Below are positions 33,587 to 41,656 of a stretch of DNA of 64,000 nucleotides, one piece after another; positions within the stretch are counted from its first letter, which is position 1, and every line of letters begins with the position of its first letter. The notes under the pieces were generated by a model. That model did no database searches and was not told the DNA's origin. It was given only the letters and a program-made list of their open reading frames with translations. Both the position numbers and the translations under genes were made by a program. Origin of the DNA: Chloroflexota bacterium (GTDB lineage: Bacteria > Chloroflexota > Anaerolineae > Anaerolineales > DRMV01); the NCBI GenBank assembly GCA_011322445.1, contig DRMV01000020.1, forward strand, positions 64,157 to 128,156, read 5' to 3'.

Positions 33587-34093
33587 ATGCTTAAATACGC
33601 CCTTTTAGGATTACTGGACGAAGCGCCGCGCCACGGATATGACCTCAAGCAGGCCTTCGAGGCCATGTTAGGCCATACCTGGTCGGTCAACATTGGCCAG
33701 ATTTACAGCACGTTAGCCCGCTTAGAGCGCGATGGCCTGGTAACCTGCCACGAGGTGCCACAGGAACTGCTGCCCAACCGCAAGGTATGCTCGCTCACCG
33801 AGCAGGGGCGCGCCGCCCTCGCCCGCTGGCTGGCTGAACCCGCGCGGCCTTCCGCCCGCCTGCGGGTGGATTTTTACCTCAAACTACTCCTCGCCCGCCG
33901 CTCCGGCGCGGCTGATCTGCAAACCCTCATTTGGCAGCAGCGCCAAACCCTCCTGCAGGCCATGGCCGACCTCACCCCCTTGCTCACCGACCCCGACGAG
34001 GAGCGCCGCCTCCTGGCCGAGGGCTTACAGTTGCACTTGGAGGCTGATTTGAAATGGTTGGAACGATGTGAGGAAGAGTTGTTGAGGGAGTGA
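33587..34093 (+). CDS. PadR-family transcriptional regulator
   Basis: MLKYALLGLLDEAPRHGYDLKQAFEAMLGHTWSVNIGQIYSTLARLERDGLV is the canonical PadR winged helix. The SD GGAG lies 7 nt upstream. Confidence 0.9.
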   Translation: MLKYALLGLLDEAPRHGYDLKQAFEAMLGHTWSVNIGQIYSTLARLERDGLVTCHEVPQELLPNRKVCSLTEQGRAALARWLAEPARPSARLRVDFYLKLLLARRSGAADLQTLIWQQRQTLLQAMADLTPLLTDPDEERRLLAEGLQLHLEADLKWLERCEEELLRE

Positions 34094-34137
34094 GGTACTG
34101 AGGGATTGAGGGATTGAGGGATTAAGGTGCTGAGGTG
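34082..34137 (+). repeat. 8-nt periodic array, seven units of NTGAGGNN (core TGAGGGAT x3)
   Basis: ttgaggga gtgaggta ctgaggga ttgaggga ttgaggga ttaaggtg ctgaggtg. The array spans the padR stop codon at 34091. Confidence 0.85.
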
Positions 34138-34186
34138 AATGGGCTGTGGTGGCTCTTAATCTCCTCTGCGCCCTTGGCGTCATCAT

Positions 34187-34217
34187 CCACCGATTGACAC
34201 AGATTTACACCGATTGA
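34187..34217 (+). repeat. 31-nt word repeat CACCGATTGA/CACAGATTTA/CACCGATTGA, shared with 38562..38592
   Basis: ccaccgattgacacagatttacaccgattga matches the reverse complement of 38562..38592 at 27 of 31 positions. It is followed by CACAGA-type words and then the inverted words TCTCTGCG and TCTTTGCG, up to about 34310. Confidence 0.85.
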
Positions 34218-34419
34218 GCAAGAAAACCACAGAGGACACAGAAATTTACAGAGAACACAGAAAAAACTTTTCTTTGCGTTCTTTGCTTTCTCTGCGTCTC
34301 TGCGTTTCCCTTGGCGTCCTTTGTGCCCTTGGCGCCCTTGGCGACCCCTTGACACACAAAAAAATCCACAATCGTCCACCATCATCCGCGCCCAACTTTC
34401 CCATTCAGGAGGTATCACC

Positions 34420-37469: not shown

Positions 37470-37522
37470 GGAGGCAGAAAAAAGGCCTCTGGGCATTTCC
37501 AGAGGCCAGTGTGTTTATGCCC

Positions 37523-38473
37523 TCAGGGCACAATCCAGGTGCCGGTCTCGCCACGCAACGCCGCGGGGATGTGTTCGGGGTCGGTAATCAGCGCCTTGCC
37601 GTTGGGTACGGCCTTCAGGTAGCGCAAAATGGCCTCGATTTTCGGCTTCATGCTGCCGGGCTTGAAATGGCCCTCGGCCAGGTACTTTTCGGCCTCGGCC
37701 ACGGTCATCTTGTCCAGCCACTGCTGGTTGGGCTTGCCAAAGTTGAGCGCCACTTTTTCCACGGCGGTGGAAATCAGGAACAGGTCCACCTTCATGGAAA
37801 TTGCCAGCAGCGCCGAGGCAAAGTCCTTGTCGATGACCGCTTCCACGCCTTCCAGTTCGCCCTTTTCGTTCTCGACGACCGGAATGCCGCCGCCGCCCAC
37901 GGCAACCACGGTGAACTTGTTTTCCACTAAGGTGCGGATGGCATCCAGTTCGATGATTTTCTTGGGGTTGGGGGAAGGCACCACCCGCCGCCAGCCGCGG
38001 CCGGCGTCTTCCATCACGTGCCAGCCCTGCGCCATGCGCTGTTTGGCGGTTTCCTCGTCCATGAACGAGCCGATGGGCTTGCTGGGGTGCTCGAAAGCCG
38101 GGTCGTCCTTGTCCACCAGCACCTGGGTGACCACGGTAGCAGCCTGGTTGCTCATGCCGCGGCGCTTGAATTCGTTGTGCAGCGCCTTCTGGAACATGTA
38201 GCCGATCGCGCCCTGGGTGTCGGCACCGCAGGAATCCAGCGGCACGGTATGCAGTTCGTGGGCGGCCAGTTCGGCGCGCCGCAAAATGAAGCCCACCTGC
38301 GGCCCGTTGCCGTGCGTGATGACCACGTCCCAGCCGCTGGCAATCATCTCGGTGATGTGGTGCATGGTCTCTTTGGCCGCAGCATACTGGTCGGGGATGG
38401 TCTTGTGCTGCTTGTCTTTGATGAGAGCATTGCCGCCAACGGCAACAACGGCAACTTTACGCTCGGTGCTCAT
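37523..38473 (-). CDS. arcC: carbamate kinase
   Basis: Start re-assigned to MSTERKVAVVAVGGNALIKD (ATG 38473, SD AAAGGAGG). Motifs ITHGNGPQVG, VVAVGGGGIPV and a GHFKPGSMKPKIEA C-terminus. Confidence 0.9.
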   Translation of the reverse strand: MSTERKVAVVAVGGNALIKDKQHKTIPDQYAAAKETMHHITEMIASGWDVVITHGNGPQVGFILRRAELAAHELHTVPLDSCGADTQGAIGYMFQKALHNEFKRRGMSNQAATVVTQVLVDKDDPAFEHPSKPIGSFMDEETAKQRMAQGWHVMEDAGRGWRRVVPSPNPKKIIELDAIRTLVENKFTVVAVGGGGIPVVENEKGELEGVEAVIDKDFASALLAISMKVDLFLISTAVEKVALNFGKPNQQWLDKMTVAEAEKYLAEGHFKPGSMKPKIEAILRYLKAVPNGKALITDPEHIPAALRGETGTWIVP

Positions 38474-38596
38474 GAAACCTCCTTTGGGGAAAGCAATCCA
38501 CAAATTTCACAGATCAGCACAGATTTTTCTGTGGAATCTGCGTAATCTGCGGTTTCAAAATCCAATCGGTGAAAATCTGTGCCAATCTGTGGATGC
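38474..38596 (-). repeat. word-repeat 5' UTR element upstream of arcC (CACAGATT / CGCAGATT units followed by inverted TCTGTG units)
   Basis: The minus sense reads ccacagattggcacagattttcaccgattgg attttgaaac cgcagatta cgcagattc CACAGAaaaaTCTGTG ctgatctgtgaaatttgtgg. The 31-nt core (38562..38592) is shared with 34187..34217, in the same orientation relative to the downstream gene. Confidence 0.8.
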
Positions 38597-39586
38597 CTAT
38601 CGCATGGTCAGCGCCATCACGGCCTTCTGGACGTGCAGGCGGTTTTCGGCCTCGTCGAAGACCACCGAGTGCGGGCCATCCAGCACCTCGCTGGTGACCT
38701 CAATGTCACGGTCGGCGGGCAAGGGGTGCATGTAAATGGCGTCGTCTTTCGCCAGCGCCATCTTCCGCGCATCCATAATCCAGTGCTTGTACTGATCCTG
38801 AATGCGCTTGCCTTCGTCGGGGTCGGTGGTGGTCATCAGCGGGCCCCACGATTTGGCATACACCACGTCGGCGTCTTTCATCGCCTCTTCCATGCCGTTG
38901 GGGTCGGAAATCACCTCAAACGACGAGCCGTACTTGGCCGCCTGCGCCTTGGCCTGCTCGACGATGTCGGGCATCAGGCCAAATTCCGGCGGGTGCGCCA
39001 GGGTCACATCCATGCCGAAGCGGGTCATCTGCAAAATCAGCGATTGCGGCACGGAAATCGGCTTGAGGTACGACGAGGCGTAAGCCCAGGAAACCACCAG
39101 TTTCTTGCGCCGCAGGTCACGCCCCTTCTTTTCCATCATGGTCATCAGGTCGGCCAAGATCTGGAAGGGGTGATAGATTTCGCACTGCATGTTGAACACC
39201 GGCACGCGGGAAGCCTCGGCAACATGGTTGATGTAGCGGTTGCCCACGCCCCAGGTCACATGGCGGATGGCGATGCCGTCGAAGTAGCGGCCAAAGATCT
39301 CGCCGAGTTCGCGCTCGGTGTCGCCGTGGGAAATCTGGGTGGTACGGCTTTCAATGAAGGCCGCATGGCCGCCCAACTGGTCAATGCCAGCCTCGAAAGA
39401 GCCACGGGTGCGGGTGCTGGGGAAGAAGAACAACATCGCCAGCACCTTGTCGCGCAGGTAAGCATGGGGTTCGCCCAAAGCGCGCTTGCGCTTCAGGTCC
39501 CAGGCCACCTCGAGAACGGTTTCCACTTCCTCTTTGCTGAAGTCCAGGTCGCCAATCAGGTCGCGACCGCGCAGATCGGTTTGCAT
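38597..39586 (-). CDS. YgeW-like (knotted) carbamoyltransferase
   Basis: STRTR carbamoyl-phosphate motif. Blocks TQISHGDTERE, FNMQCEIYHPFQILADL, KKLVVSWAYASSYLKPISVPQSLILQMTRFGMDVTLAHP, DADVVYAKSWGP and YMHPLPADR are colinear with E. coli YgeW as recalled from memory. The OTCase SMG and HCLP signatures are absent. Confidence 0.75.
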   Translation of the reverse strand: MQTDLRGRDLIGDLDFSKEEVETVLEVAWDLKRKRALGEPHAYLRDKVLAMLFFFPSTRTRGSFEAGIDQLGGHAAFIESRTTQISHGDTERELGEIFGRYFDGIAIRHVTWGVGNRYINHVAEASRVPVFNMQCEIYHPFQILADLMTMMEKKGRDLRRKKLVVSWAYASSYLKPISVPQSLILQMTRFGMDVTLAHPPEFGLMPDIVEQAKAQAAKYGSSFEVISDPNGMEEAMKDADVVYAKSWGPLMTTTDPDEGKRIQDQYKHWIMDARKMALAKDDAIYMHPLPADRDIEVTSEVLDGPHSVVFDEAENRLHVQKAVMALTMR

Positions 39587-39596
39587 GATAGTCTCC

Positions 39597-39724
39597 TTAG
39601 TCAGTTAGTCAGGTAGTCGTTTAGTCGAGTAGTCGGTTAGTCAGGTAGTCGTTTAGTCGGGTAGTCGGCACCAGGCGACTACCCGACTATCAGACTACCG
39701 GACTGTCAGACTATTTGACTATTT
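39597..39724 (-). repeat. 8-nt periodic TAGTC/GACTA array forming a long hairpin; it fills the whole intergenic gap
   Basis: On the plus strand there are nine units of (T/G)TAGTCNN (39597..39668), the loop caccaggc, then six units of GACTANNN (39677..39724). A perfect 14-bp stem pairs 39654..39667 with 39676..39689. The outermost units abut the SD of the YgeW-like gene and overlap the stop codon of the PyrB-like gene. Confidence 0.9.
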
Positions 39725-40676
39725 ATTCCATCGCCCCGAGCACCAATGCCAGCAATGCCATGCGCATCACCACGCCGTTGAAGGCTTCCTGCCAGTAGCG
39801 AGCCCAGCGGGTGCCATCCACATCGGTGGGGATTTCATCCATCCGCGGGAAGGAGTGCAGCAAGATGGCGTCGGGCTTGGCTTTGGTTTCCAGCAGTTCT
39901 TTGGTGATTTTGTAGTTGGGCGGTGTCAGGCCCACATCGCCGGTGCGCTCGTCGCGCGGCTTGGTGTAGTCGGGCTGCACCACGGGCTCGACCAGAATCA
40001 CATCGGCCTCGTGAATCACCTGCTCGATGTGTTCGGCTTCCTTGAAGTTGAGCCCCATTTCCTTGATTTCGGCCTTGAACTCGTCGGTGAGGCTCATTTC
40101 GGGCGGGGCGATGAAAGTGATGGGGCAGTCGAACTTGGTGAGGGCATAGGCGAGGGAGTGCATGGTGCGCATGCGCATATCGCCTACGGCCACCCAGGTG
40201 AGGCCATCGATGCGGCCTTTTTCGCGGTAAACGGTGTAGAGGTCGGTCAGGATCTGGGTGGGGTGTTCGCCCCAGCCGTCGCCGCCGTTGATAATCGGAA
40301 TGGAAGCCCACTTGGCGGCTTCGGCGGGTGCGCCCTGCTGGAAGTGGCGCATCACGATGACGTCGCCGTAGTATTCCAGCATGCGGACAGTGTCTTTGAT
40401 AGACTCGCGGTAGAAGTCGCCGGCGCGAGTCATCTTGGGGTCGGCAAAGCCGGTGACCTTGCCGCCCAGGCGCAGCATCGCGGCTTCGTGCGCCAGGCGG
40501 GTGCGGGTGGAGGGCTGATAGAAAGCGGTGACCAGTGTCTTGTCTTTGAGCAGATCCACATTCTTGCGATTGCGAGCAATCGGCTCCAACTGTTCGGCGA
40601 CCTCGAACGTGCGGAAGAACTCGCTCCGCTCGAAGTCTTTCAAAGAAAGGATGTCACGGCCGAGGAAACTGCGCAT
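39723..40676 (-). CDS. aspartate carbamoyltransferase-like (PyrB-type) carbamoyltransferase with a divergent second-substrate site
   Basis: Start ATG 40676 (MRSFLGRDILSLKDF) lies 7 nt after GGAGGT. It keeps STRTR, VMRH, GEHPTQ, the GDMRMRTMHSL region and LHSFPRMDEIPTDVD. It is colinear with E. coli PyrB, but HPLPR is HSFPR and the TRVQKER segment reads EPVVQPD. Confidence 0.75.
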   Translation of the reverse strand: MRSFLGRDILSLKDFERSEFFRTFEVAEQLEPIARNRKNVDLLKDKTLVTAFYQPSTRTRLAHEAAMLRLGGKVTGFADPKMTRAGDFYRESIKDTVRMLEYYGDVIVMRHFQQGAPAEAAKWASIPIINGGDGWGEHPTQILTDLYTVYREKGRIDGLTWVAVGDMRMRTMHSLAYALTKFDCPITFIAPPEMSLTDEFKAEIKEMGLNFKEAEHIEQVIHEADVILVEPVVQPDYTKPRDERTGDVGLTPPNYKITKELLETKAKPDAILLHSFPRMDEIPTDVDGTRWARYWQEAFNGVVMRMALLALVLGAME

Positions 40677-40819: not shown

Positions 40820-41656
40820 GTGTATAATTCCTCTGTGCACACCCCCAATTACCTCGCCATCGGGCACATCAGCCGCGACCTGACGCCGGAAGGCCCTCGC
40901 TTAGGCGGCAGTGTGGCCTACGCCGCCCGCACAGCCCAGGCTTTCGGGTTGCAGTCCGCCATCGTCACGGCCTGCGGCCCCGACACCTCCCTCAGCGGTG
41001 CCCTGGAAGGCATCGCCGTCCACTGCGTGCCCTCAAACGCCACCACCACCTTTGTGCTGGAAAGCACACCGCAAGGGCGGCGACTGGCGCTCCAGGCACA
41101 GGCAGCGCCACTGAAGTGGGAAAGCATCCCTGCGGCGTGGCAGCGTGCCCCGCTGGTGCATCTGGCCCCGGTGGCCGCCGAGTTGCCCCCAGGGCTGGCC
41201 GCCCGCTTCGCCGGCCGCTTCGTGGGCGTCACCCCCCAGGGCTGGCTGCGCGCCTGGGGAGATGACGGTATCATCCGCCCCACGGCATGGCCCGAAGCCA
41301 AAACCGTACTCGCCCAAGCCACCGCTGCCGTCCTCAGCCTGGAAGACCTGGGCGGTGACGAAAGCCGCATTCCCCCTTTGGCCGAGATGGTGCCGGTGCT
41401 GGTGGTCACGCGGGGGGCGGCTGGCGCCACCCTCCACTGGCAGGGCCAAGCCCACACCATCCCGGCCCCACCCGCGCGCCCCACCGACACCACCGGCGCG
41501 GGCGACATCTTCGCTGCGGCCTTCTTCATCCGTCTGTACCACACCCGCGACCCGCTGGCCGCGGCTCGCTTTGCCAGCCAGGTGGCCGCCCTCTCGGTGC
41601 AGCGCCCTGGCCTTGCCGCCCCCCCTACCCCCGATGAAATCCGCGCCCTGCTGTAA
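40820..41656 (+). CDS. PfkB/ribokinase-family carbohydrate kinase
   Basis: NYLAIGHISRDL N-terminus and the TDTTGAGDIFAAAFF anion-hole motif. The start is uncertain: GTG 40820 or GTG 40835. Confidence 0.75.
   Translation: MYNSSVHTPNYLAIGHISRDLTPEGPRLGGSVAYAARTAQAFGLQSAIVTACGPDTSLSGALEGIAVHCVPSNATTTFVLESTPQGRRLALQAQAAPLKWESIPAAWQRAPLVHLAPVAAELPPGLAARFAGRFVGVTPQGWLRAWGDDGIIRPTAWPEAKTVLAQATAAVLSLEDLGGDESRIPPLAEMVPVLVVTRGAAGATLHWQGQAHTIPAPPARPTDTTGAGDIFAAAFFIRLYHTRDPLAAARFASQVAALSVQRPGLAAPPTPDEIRALL

Follow-up and report, generated by a model that had tools for sequence, protein, structure and literature searches.

Two atypical carbamoyltransferases and a carbamate kinase form a conserved gene unit of Anaerolineae, a candidate ATP-harvesting end of anaerobic purine degradation

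The anaerobic degradation of urate, with its ATP-yielding YgeW/YqeA step, was not elucidated until 2025, in studies of gut bacteria. The route leads from urate to 2,8-dioxopurine, which is reduced and then processed by SsnA and HyuA to 2,3-diureidopropanoate, the compound on which YgeW acts before a hydrolysis catalyzed by YgeY and the formation of pyruvate through YgeX (bioRxiv 10.1101/2025.04.24.650524; PMC12507026). YgeW cleaves by phosphorolysis, and the carbamoyl phosphate released is used by YqeA to make ATP (bioRxiv 10.1101/2025.04.24.650524; PMC12507026); the two enzymes together form ATP from 2,3-diureidopropanoate in vitro (bioRxiv 10.1101/2025.04.24.650524). In the corresponding clusters of Chloroflexota the reductase is an F420-dependent member of the luciferase family (PMC12507026). 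Here we describe three neighboring minus-strand open reading frames (ORFs) at positions 37523-40676 of a 64,000-nucleotide stretch from a Chloroflexota bacterium (contig DRMV01000020.1 of assembly GCA_011322445.1; hereafter the window). They encode, in the order of the operon, a pseudo-aspartate carbamoyltransferase (TC3), a compact YgeW-type carbamoyltransferase (TC2) and a carbamate kinase (CK).

Three other described systems are close enough to be useful for comparison. Barba et al. 2013 defined the pseudo-ATCases, which are paralogues of aspartate carbamoyltransferase (ATCase), and Rxyl_2847 of Rubrobacter xylanophilus, which adjoins a carbamate kinase, phosphorolyses allantoate, a diureido compound (PMC4016543). 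In Nocardioides a pseudo-ATCase gene adjoins a homologue of ygeW, with xdhABC and hyuA after it (PMC4016543). In Thermoflexus hugenholtzii the gene order is M20A peptidase, transcarbamylase, arcC, with a pyr operon and a second ornithine carbamoyltransferase (OTCase) lying separately from this trio; adenine and adenosine were the sole medium compounds confidently identified as consumed by that organism.

We propose, with a probability of roughly 60%, that the TC3-TC2-CK triad serves to harvest carbamoyl phosphate and ATP at the end of anaerobic purine (urate) degradation, on the reductive route through 2,8-dioxopurine. The proposal draws on the identities of the three genes, the conservation of the operon, the purine context of the triad in relatives, the YgeW-like substrate site of TC2 and the loss of aspartate ligands from TC3. 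The link of the triad to purines is well supported. The YgeW/YqeA urate pathway itself is known; what is new is the conserved combination of a compact YgeW-type enzyme, a pseudo-ATCase and a single kinase.

A survey using one genome per GTDB species returned at least 566 relatives of TC3, and the locus counts given throughout come from the best 80 of these. Almost all of the 80 carry the label Anaerolineae or another Chloroflexota label, the cultured Thermanaerothrix solaris being one of them, and all are at least 82% identical to TC3; apart from the window itself, TC3 is 82-88% identical in 77 further Anaerolineae species loci. TC2 was found directly downstream of TC3 in 67 of the 80 loci and CK in 58, and where enough flanking sequence was present both genes followed in 46 of 51 loci. 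Since dozens of species genomes have the genes in this order, the triad is a conserved unit of Anaerolineae and not a set of chance neighbors. A conservation survey of this kind, together with a phylogenetic placement of both transferases (given below), had been named as a check by an earlier reading of the window made from its letters alone (the original prediction).

Neighboring genes were counted over the 80 loci by ORF clustering or by tblastn, with annotation of representatives of the clusters. The triad of most other Anaerolineae stands amid purine-catabolic genes. The usual architecture, all on the same strand, runs FolD, 8-oxoguanine deaminase, adenine deaminase, a GntR/UTRA regulator, optionally YgeY, TC3, TC2, CK, a BMP-type transporter and a ThrC-like protein. 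The 8-oxoguanine deaminase (NF006055, score 670 vs cut-off 532) was present in 44 loci by clustering and 46 by tblastn, the adenine deaminase (TIGR01178, 508 vs 472) in 37 and 39, the YgeY-family M20 hydrolase (TIGR03526, 443 vs 321) in 23 and 28, and the binding protein of the BMP-type ABC transporter in 24 and 15, respectively. The ThrC-like pyridoxal phosphate (PLP) enzyme, which is the sole family at these loci resembling E. coli YgeX, occurred in 27 and 29 loci, and the GntR/UTRA regulator in 58 by clustering. The catabolic, ATP-yielding role that had been suggested for the triad from the window alone is supported. The accompanying view that its feeder pathway was unrecognizable is superseded, as the triad lies in purine clusters in most Anaerolineae and in a full reductive urate cluster in one locus (L005); the feeder is most likely the reductive purine pathway reported in 2025.

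Among the 80 loci, L005 is the only one with the full urate cluster. Its gene order is xanthine dehydrogenase (XDH), XdhB, a ThrC-like protein, a luciferase-like monooxygenase (LLM) F420 oxidoreductase, YgeY, TC3, TC2, CK, SsnA, the XDH FAD/FeS and Mo subunits, and a D-hydantoinase/HyuA, so that XDH genes are present in two sets. The TC3 encoded there is 87-88% identical to that of the window by tblastn, SsnA scores 523 vs 444 and the D-hydantoinase/HyuA 487 vs 393, and proteins of the locus are 36-52% identical to the products of E. coli ssnA, hyuA, ygeY and yqeA. The locus matches the E. coli ygeW-ssnA set in every urate-cluster component save an orthologue of YgeX, in whose place a ThrC-like PLP enzyme is found, and its LLM gene is the F420 reductase variant reported for Chloroflexota. 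HyuA-like, LLM or XDH-subunit genes were also near the triad in a few other loci. Of the components that define a reductive urate cluster (an XDH-type dehydroxylase, a YgfK, UacX or LLM reductase, SsnA, HyuA, YgeW, YgeY, YgeX and CK), the window has the YgeW-type gene and CK only. In the YgeW-YqeA step of E. coli and Clostridium sporogenes a YgeW-type transferase likewise adjoins a carbamate kinase, and L005 shares with these organisms the partners XDH, SsnA, HyuA and YgeY. The Anaerolineae arrangement differs from theirs in that TC2 is shorter (329 vs 396 amino acids) and always preceded by an ATCase-derived second transferase, in that an F420-type LLM reductase and, for YgeX, a ThrC-like PLP enzyme are present, and in that the window is without the upstream genes.

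Two further arrangements were seen among the related loci. Several have a conserved block 3' of CK (for example L048 3606-9408, L016 8107-13851 and L014 13497-19278) that consists of the ThrC-like PLP enzyme, a putative family-2 glycosyltransferase assigned by eye, a 490-amino acid CysK-like PALP protein, a protein of ~190-210 amino acids without a Pfam match, and a HyuA-type hydantoinase; the block is entire in about 4 loci, and its first three members are found in 11-15. Locus L019 (6748-14773) encodes an LLM F420 oxidoreductase, a gene of no recognized family, YgeY, TC3, an XdhB/YgfM-like FAD subunit, SerC and a ThrC-like protein, with no TC2 or CK within 10 kb, and TC3 can therefore accompany YgeY without a YgeW-type partner nearby.

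The three gene identities given in the original prediction (PyrB-like, YgeW-like and carbamate kinase) are correct. TC2 has the Pfam domains OTCace_N and OTCace, is 35% identical to E. coli YgeW, and lies under every NCBIfam cut-off (N-acetylornithine carbamoyltransferase (AOTCase) NF003384, 259/288; OTCase, 256/306; YgeW NF005538, 192/453; TIGR03316, 180/500). Eight residues make up the second-substrate site of YgeW: Q98, D124, Q160, S200, K203, K270, D334 and E344 (Shi et al. 2015, PMC4581275). TC2 and its family share seven of these with YgeW (Q98, Q160, S200, K203, K270, D334 and E344), the exception being D124, where H is found. The proline-rich loop is nearly identical, reading WAYASSYLKPISVPQS in TC2 and WAYSPSYGKPLSVPQG in YgeW, and the 120s loop is four residues longer than that of OTCase. 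In YgeW-type enzymes a proline-rich loop and an extended 120s loop are the signature of the knotted fold. Five YgeW-specific insertions or extensions are missing from TC2: the helices at both termini and three insertions inside the chain. The two extra helices in the 240s loop of YgeW are not present. In a Neighbor Joining tree TC2 grouped with YgeW and AOTCase with 82% bootstrap support, and with YgeW itself weakly (56%). An AlphaFold2 model of TC2 had an overall confidence (pLDDT) of 81, falling below 50 at residues 170-174 in the proline-rich loop, and a Foldseek search of the PDB with this model produced a tie between OTCase and AOTCase, with TM scores of ~0.8 for knotted and unknotted enzymes alike. 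With seven of the eight substrate-site residues and the proline-rich loop retained, the name YgeW-like suits TC2, and it reads as a compact YgeW-type enzyme which would use the same substrate as YgeW or a very similar one.

Both conventional identities for TC2 were considered and rejected. As anticipated from the window alone, the OTCase signatures are missing from the two transferases: where OTCase has SMG (in the DxxxSMG loop) and HCLP, TC2 has YAKSWGP and HPLP; TC3 reads HSFPR. With these motifs absent and scores under all OTCase cut-offs, TC2 is not an OTCase. Its C-terminal domain aligns to that of AOTCase nearly without gaps (single one-residue gaps), but its 80s loop is short and lacks the insertions of the extended, E92-containing loop of AOTCase, HPLP stands in place of HCLP, E occupies the position of K302, and the score against NF003384 is below the cut-off, so that an AOTCase was rejected as well.

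CK contains PF00696, the amino-acid-kinase fold, exceeds the cut-offs of TIGR00746 arcC (378 vs 358 bits) and NF009007 (412 vs 266 bits), and is 48% identical to E. coli YqeA. Judged by its sequence, CK is a true carbamate kinase. The mechanically called ORF begins at a TTG at 38503; the likely true start is the ATG at 38473, after AAAGGAGG.

TC3 also has the OTCace_N and OTCace domains and is ~40% identical to the ATCase of Pyrococcus abyssi. It scores above the cut-off of TIGR00670 (250 vs 237) and below that of NF002032 (225 vs 263), and no pyr gene is nearby. An exhaustive search supplied 95 representatives, which were aligned together with TC3 and E. coli PyrB. The carbamoyl-phosphate site is intact, with STRT (S52-T55), R105 and HPTQ (H134-Q137), and R167 is also retained. 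The aspartate site is lost: K84 is gone from the 80s loop, which reads RAGDFYRES, and R229 and Q231 are gone from the segment that reads EPVVQPDY for TRxQKER. TC3 has HSFPR where ATCase has HPLPR. The canonical ATCases in the alignment have S-x-KKGE, K-YGRT and TRxQKER; of the ~45 sequences of canonical type, almost all retain K-G-E and an RxQ-type motif, with a few variants such as P0321 (SVQKE) and P0386 (RIRPE). TC3 and a large, diverse set of paralogues share R-A-GD-x-Y-x-E, a one-residue deletion preceding R167, and the absence of RxQ. Because the ligands of the beta-carboxylate are gone, TC3 is not an ATCase. In ATCase, R167 is the ligand of the alpha-carboxylate, and TC3 still has the look of an enzyme that acts on an N-alpha-carbamoyl amino acid. 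The description of TC3 as PyrB-like but atypical is apt.

TC3 has the sequence and tree features by which Barba et al. 2013 recognized pseudo-ATCases, namely the loss of RxQ, an altered H-P-L-P motif and a branching position outside the genuine ATCases; in the Neighbor Joining tree the canonical ATCases formed a clade (71% bootstrap) and TC3 lay outside it, with non-canonical sequences. On a further trait of the group, coexistence with a genuine ATCase in one genome, the evidence is at the level of the class, from the canonical pyrB operons described below. Like Rxyl_2847, a ureidoglycine carbamoyltransferase (UGTCase) of pseudo-ATCase subgroup 1, it is an ATCase paralogue without RxQ that lies beside a carbamate kinase in purine-catabolic clusters. 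Rxyl_2847 differs in its HPLA and AIA motifs, in its oxidative context (uricase and allantoinase) and in having no second transferase; the subgroup-1 motifs HPLA and AIA/AIS/SIA are not found in TC3, which has HSFP and PVV. The subgroup-2 pseudo-ATCase of Nocardioides sp. JS614 shows the same pairing of two transferases in a purine cluster of reductive type, and its H[ST]LP resembles the HSFP of TC3. It differs in having GX[SC] at the RxQ position, and it has been described in one organism only.

Across the loci the median identity to the window proteins was 84% for TC3, 79% for TC2 and 65% for CK. TC3 is conserved far more than its operon partners, and also more than the canonical PyrB of Anaerolineae: the identity of canonical PyrB falls to ~58-60% inside the first 25 matches, while TC3 stays at ~84-86% over more than 100 database clusters formed at 90% identity. 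A tblastn search of plasmids with TC3 found canonical pyrB genes only. A distant pseudo-ATCase, P0260, which is 46% identical to TC3, lies in locus L084 (contig Ga0115863_1003725) near genes for glycerate kinase, enolase, an M20 peptidase, a class-III aminotransferase and a DHO_dh-ferredoxin protein of PydA/UacX-like type, and this locus may represent another ureido-compound pathway. The contexts of P0260 and P0247, both distant pseudo-ATCases (44-46% identity), are unlike those of the triad loci and were uninformative with respect to TC3.

The substrates of TC2, and especially that of TC3, are inferred. TC2 would act as E. coli YgeW does and cleave 2,3-diureidopropanoate at one ureido group by phosphorolysis, with carbamoyl phosphate and a mono-ureido diaminopropanoate as the products. 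TC3, which would derive from an enzyme for an N-alpha-carbamoyl amino acid, would then phosphorolyse the remaining group, probably that at position 2, so that a group hydrolyzed by YgeY in E. coli would here be phosphorolysed. CK would turn both carbamoyl phosphates into ATP, giving up to 2 per purine vs 1, and diaminopropanoate might be converted to pyruvate by a PLP enzyme, the ThrC-like protein. The reductive urate pathway has exactly two ureido groups to remove. This scheme of two ureido groups and two ATP is put forward tentatively. Equally tentative is its central element, in which TC3 may have a previously undescribed specificity and phosphorolyse N-alpha-carbamoyl-2,3-diaminopropanoate (3-amino-2-ureidopropanoate) after TC2 has acted, both purine ureido groups then ending up as carbamoyl phosphate and yielding 2 ATP, not 1. 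In the lineage of the window the triad would have parted from the upstream genes, which would be elsewhere in the genome or missing.

Several observations weigh against the assignment to the reductive urate route. The purine genes found beside the triad in relatives have no homologue anywhere in the 64-kb window, and no purine gene lies in the ~9 kb beyond the window start covered by locus L086; two ORFs at the opposite end of the window had no entry on record. TC3 is without a characterized close relative. Beside the triad, SsnA occurs in 1 of 80 loci, HyuA in 4, LLM in 4 and XDH subunits in ~5, and the commonest neighbors are purine deaminases, upstream feeders that make no ureido compounds. 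YgeY accompanies TC3 and TC2 in 16 of the 51 loci with enough flank, and 5 more loci have it without a complete TC2-CK pair; because of this co-occurrence TC3 is not a simple replacement for YgeY. The HyuA product is the (R)-isomer, and the substrate of ATCase is L-aspartate. Finally, the 2025 papers differ on which ureido group YgeW removes (bioRxiv 10.1101/2025.04.24.650524; PMC12507026).

The prevalence of purine deaminases and FolD, not SsnA and HyuA, beside the triad, and the co-occurrence of YgeY with both transferases, would also suit a catabolic module that works on other ureido compounds, such as N-carbamoyl-beta-alanine derived from pyrimidines, a ureido-imidazole intermediate of purine fermentation of the clostridial type, citrulline or some further substrate, with one transferase possibly regulatory or redundant. 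The specificity region of pseudo-ATCases is very diverse and the window has no feeder genes, which would be in keeping with such a module. We consider it unlikely, as the substrate site of TC2 is nearly that of YgeW, deiminase, PydA and agmatine genes are not present, and L005 ties the triad directly to the diureidopropanoate route. The arginine and agmatine deiminase pathways, in which OTCase or putrescine carbamoyltransferase (PTCase) works with ArcC, follow the same logic of ureido phosphorolysis and ATP formation from carbamoyl phosphate; here there is no deiminase or antiporter and no OTCase or PTCase signature, and one kinase serves two transferases. These pathways and the oxalurate route were rejected, no deiminase, allantoin gene or signature motif having been found. 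A full oxidative allantoin route, with TC3 as UGTCase on allantoate, TC2 acting on oxalurate or another allantoin-derived ureido acid, and CK making ATP, has in its favor that Rxyl_2847, the only characterized pseudo-ATCase, phosphorolyses allantoate beside a carbamate kinase, and that allantoate, too, has two ureido groups. It is nonetheless quite improbable, since uricase, HIU hydrolase, OHCU decarboxylase, allantoinase and ureidoglycolate dehydrogenase occur in 0 of the 80 loci, with allantoinase not found in the window either. The motifs of TC3 are not those of UGTCase subgroup 1, the oxamic transcarbamylase of E. coli is AllFGH, outside the TC2/TC3 family, and L005 carries the reductive markers SsnA, HyuA, YgeY and LLM reductase.

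Pyrococcus likewise combines a carbamate kinase-type enzyme with ATCase-like and OTCase-like proteins, in a channeled carbamoyl-phosphate synthetase (CPS) system, and the closest solved sequences are Pyrococcus enzymes (P. abyssi ATCase and P. furiosus OTCase). By analogy CK might serve as a CPS for pyrimidine and arginine synthesis, with TC3 as the ATCase and TC2 as an OTCase or AOTCase that it supplies. The score of TC3 above the TIGR00670 cut-off and its very strong conservation would agree with this, as would the proposal in the T. hugenholtzii paper that the carbamate kinase there is a CPS substitute. The Pyrococcus enzymes, however, keep full aspartate and ornithine sites and are biosynthetic, whereas in the triad both specificity sites are remodeled (the three aspartate-binding residues of TC3, and SMG, HCLP, the AOTCase 80s loop and K302 in TC2) and the neighbors are catabolic: deaminases, YgeY, the GntR/UTRA regulator and an uptake transporter. 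The pyr operon and second OTCase of T. hugenholtzii are separate from its trio, and a canonical pyrB-pyrF-pyrE-pyrD-pyrK-pyrC operon was found in an Anaerolineae metagenome-assembled genome (MAG), with two more in Chloroflexota assemblies. Set against the refuting condition of the original prediction, under which the triad genes would be the only pyrB and argF homologues of the genome, the separate pyr operons and the second OTCase point against a biosynthetic role, at the class level only; a genome with both TC3 and canonical pyrB was sought, and the three assemblies with pyrB operons (JABLXR01, JAXGMM01 and JAXHUO01) are not among the 80 TC3 loci. Of the readings discussed, we give this one the least credence.

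The features of the operon are listed in Table 1. A Shine-Dalgarno (SD) sequence precedes each of TC3, TC2 and CK, and since a hairpin with a T-run also follows 3' of CK, the three genes are apparently one operon.

Table 1. Positions of the triad genes, their spacers and the terminator in the window
Feature	Position	Strand	Details
TC3, pseudo-aspartate carbamoyltransferase	39723..40676	-	317 aa; first in operon; ATG 3' of GGAGG
TC3-TC2 spacer	39587..39722	-	opposed 8-nt arrays in one long RNA hairpin, then TC2 SD AAGGAG
TC2, compact YgeW-type carbamoyltransferase (proline-rich-loop clade)	38597..39586	-	329 aa
TC2-CK spacer	38474..38596	-	long hairpin and CK SD AAAGGAGG
CK, carbamate kinase (arcC/YqeA type)	37523..38473	-	316 aa
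Bidirectional terminator hairpin, common to converging FtsX gene	37484..37507		stem and T-run

The TC3-TC2 spacer contains, by Tandem Repeats Finder (TRF), about 9 copies of TAGTCNNN and about 6 of the opposed GACTAYCN (39598-39722), and folds as a single long hairpin (-55.5 kcal/mol, z = -7.1). Within the window this 8-nt motif is confined to the spacer (7 matches vs 0.13 expected), and it is absent from all related loci but the identical contig L001. Across species the length of the spacer ranges from ~55 bp to >1.5 kb. In 9 loci (for example L075 11050-11517, L034, L041, L044, L061 and L071) a small ORF of ~155 amino acids lies between TC3 and TC2 or beside them, and is presumably similar to the '23S rRNA intervening sequence' proteins, a family of four-helix bundles. 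The TC2-CK spacer folds at -39.6 kcal/mol (z = -3.8). The terminator reads GGCCTCTGG-loop-CCAGAGGCC, with TTTTTT after it on the minus strand (-24.2 kcal/mol, z = -4.5). An Rfam search of the whole window and of the operon found no riboswitch or known RNA, and the hairpin matches were below threshold.

The contig (k127_641286) comes from the hydrothermal-vent metagenome PRJNA290104, and exact and near-exact copies exist in MAGs of Chloroflexota/Anaerolineales. The triad is flanked by a PadR regulator, an ABC/FtsX exporter, a PfkB kinase, ParA, ParB and TrpRS. When the long ORFs from 23 to 55 kb were scanned against Pfam and NCBIfam, no gene for a deiminase, amidohydrolase or antiporter and no pyrI/pyrC or carAB turned up, in agreement with the original prediction that no feeder gene lies within about 10 kb. 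The PfkB-family kinase (40820-41656, plus strand) is divergent from TC3; the match to PfkB and ribokinase models is confined to its C-terminal ~85 residues, and its N-terminal 190 residues match nothing. It adjoins the triad only in the closest relatives, L001 and L002, and with so generic a match it was rejected as a member of the module. The segment 24000-34000 has a G+C content of 0.66-0.69 vs ~0.60-0.65 in the remainder, and contains large ORFs without a family match, a HisKA_3/LuxR two-component pair and one protein that bears Big_7 as well as thrombospondin-type repeats. The PadR-ABC intergenic region (34082-34343) has four short tandem arrays, TTGAGGGA x5.8, CACCGATTGA x3, TTCTCTGCG x4 and CCCTTGGCG x4.

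If the proposed role of the triad in reductive purine degradation is correct, it would offer a higher-ATP variant for the engineering of urate-degrading probiotics. It would assign a function to a large gene family that is now mis-annotated as pyrB and argF, and would add a new activity to the transcarbamylase superfamily, in which that of UGTCase is the sole pseudo-ATCase function we found in the literature. For the Anaerolineae, widespread environmental fermenters, purines would then be an energy source, which fits the use of adenine and adenosine by Thermoflexus.

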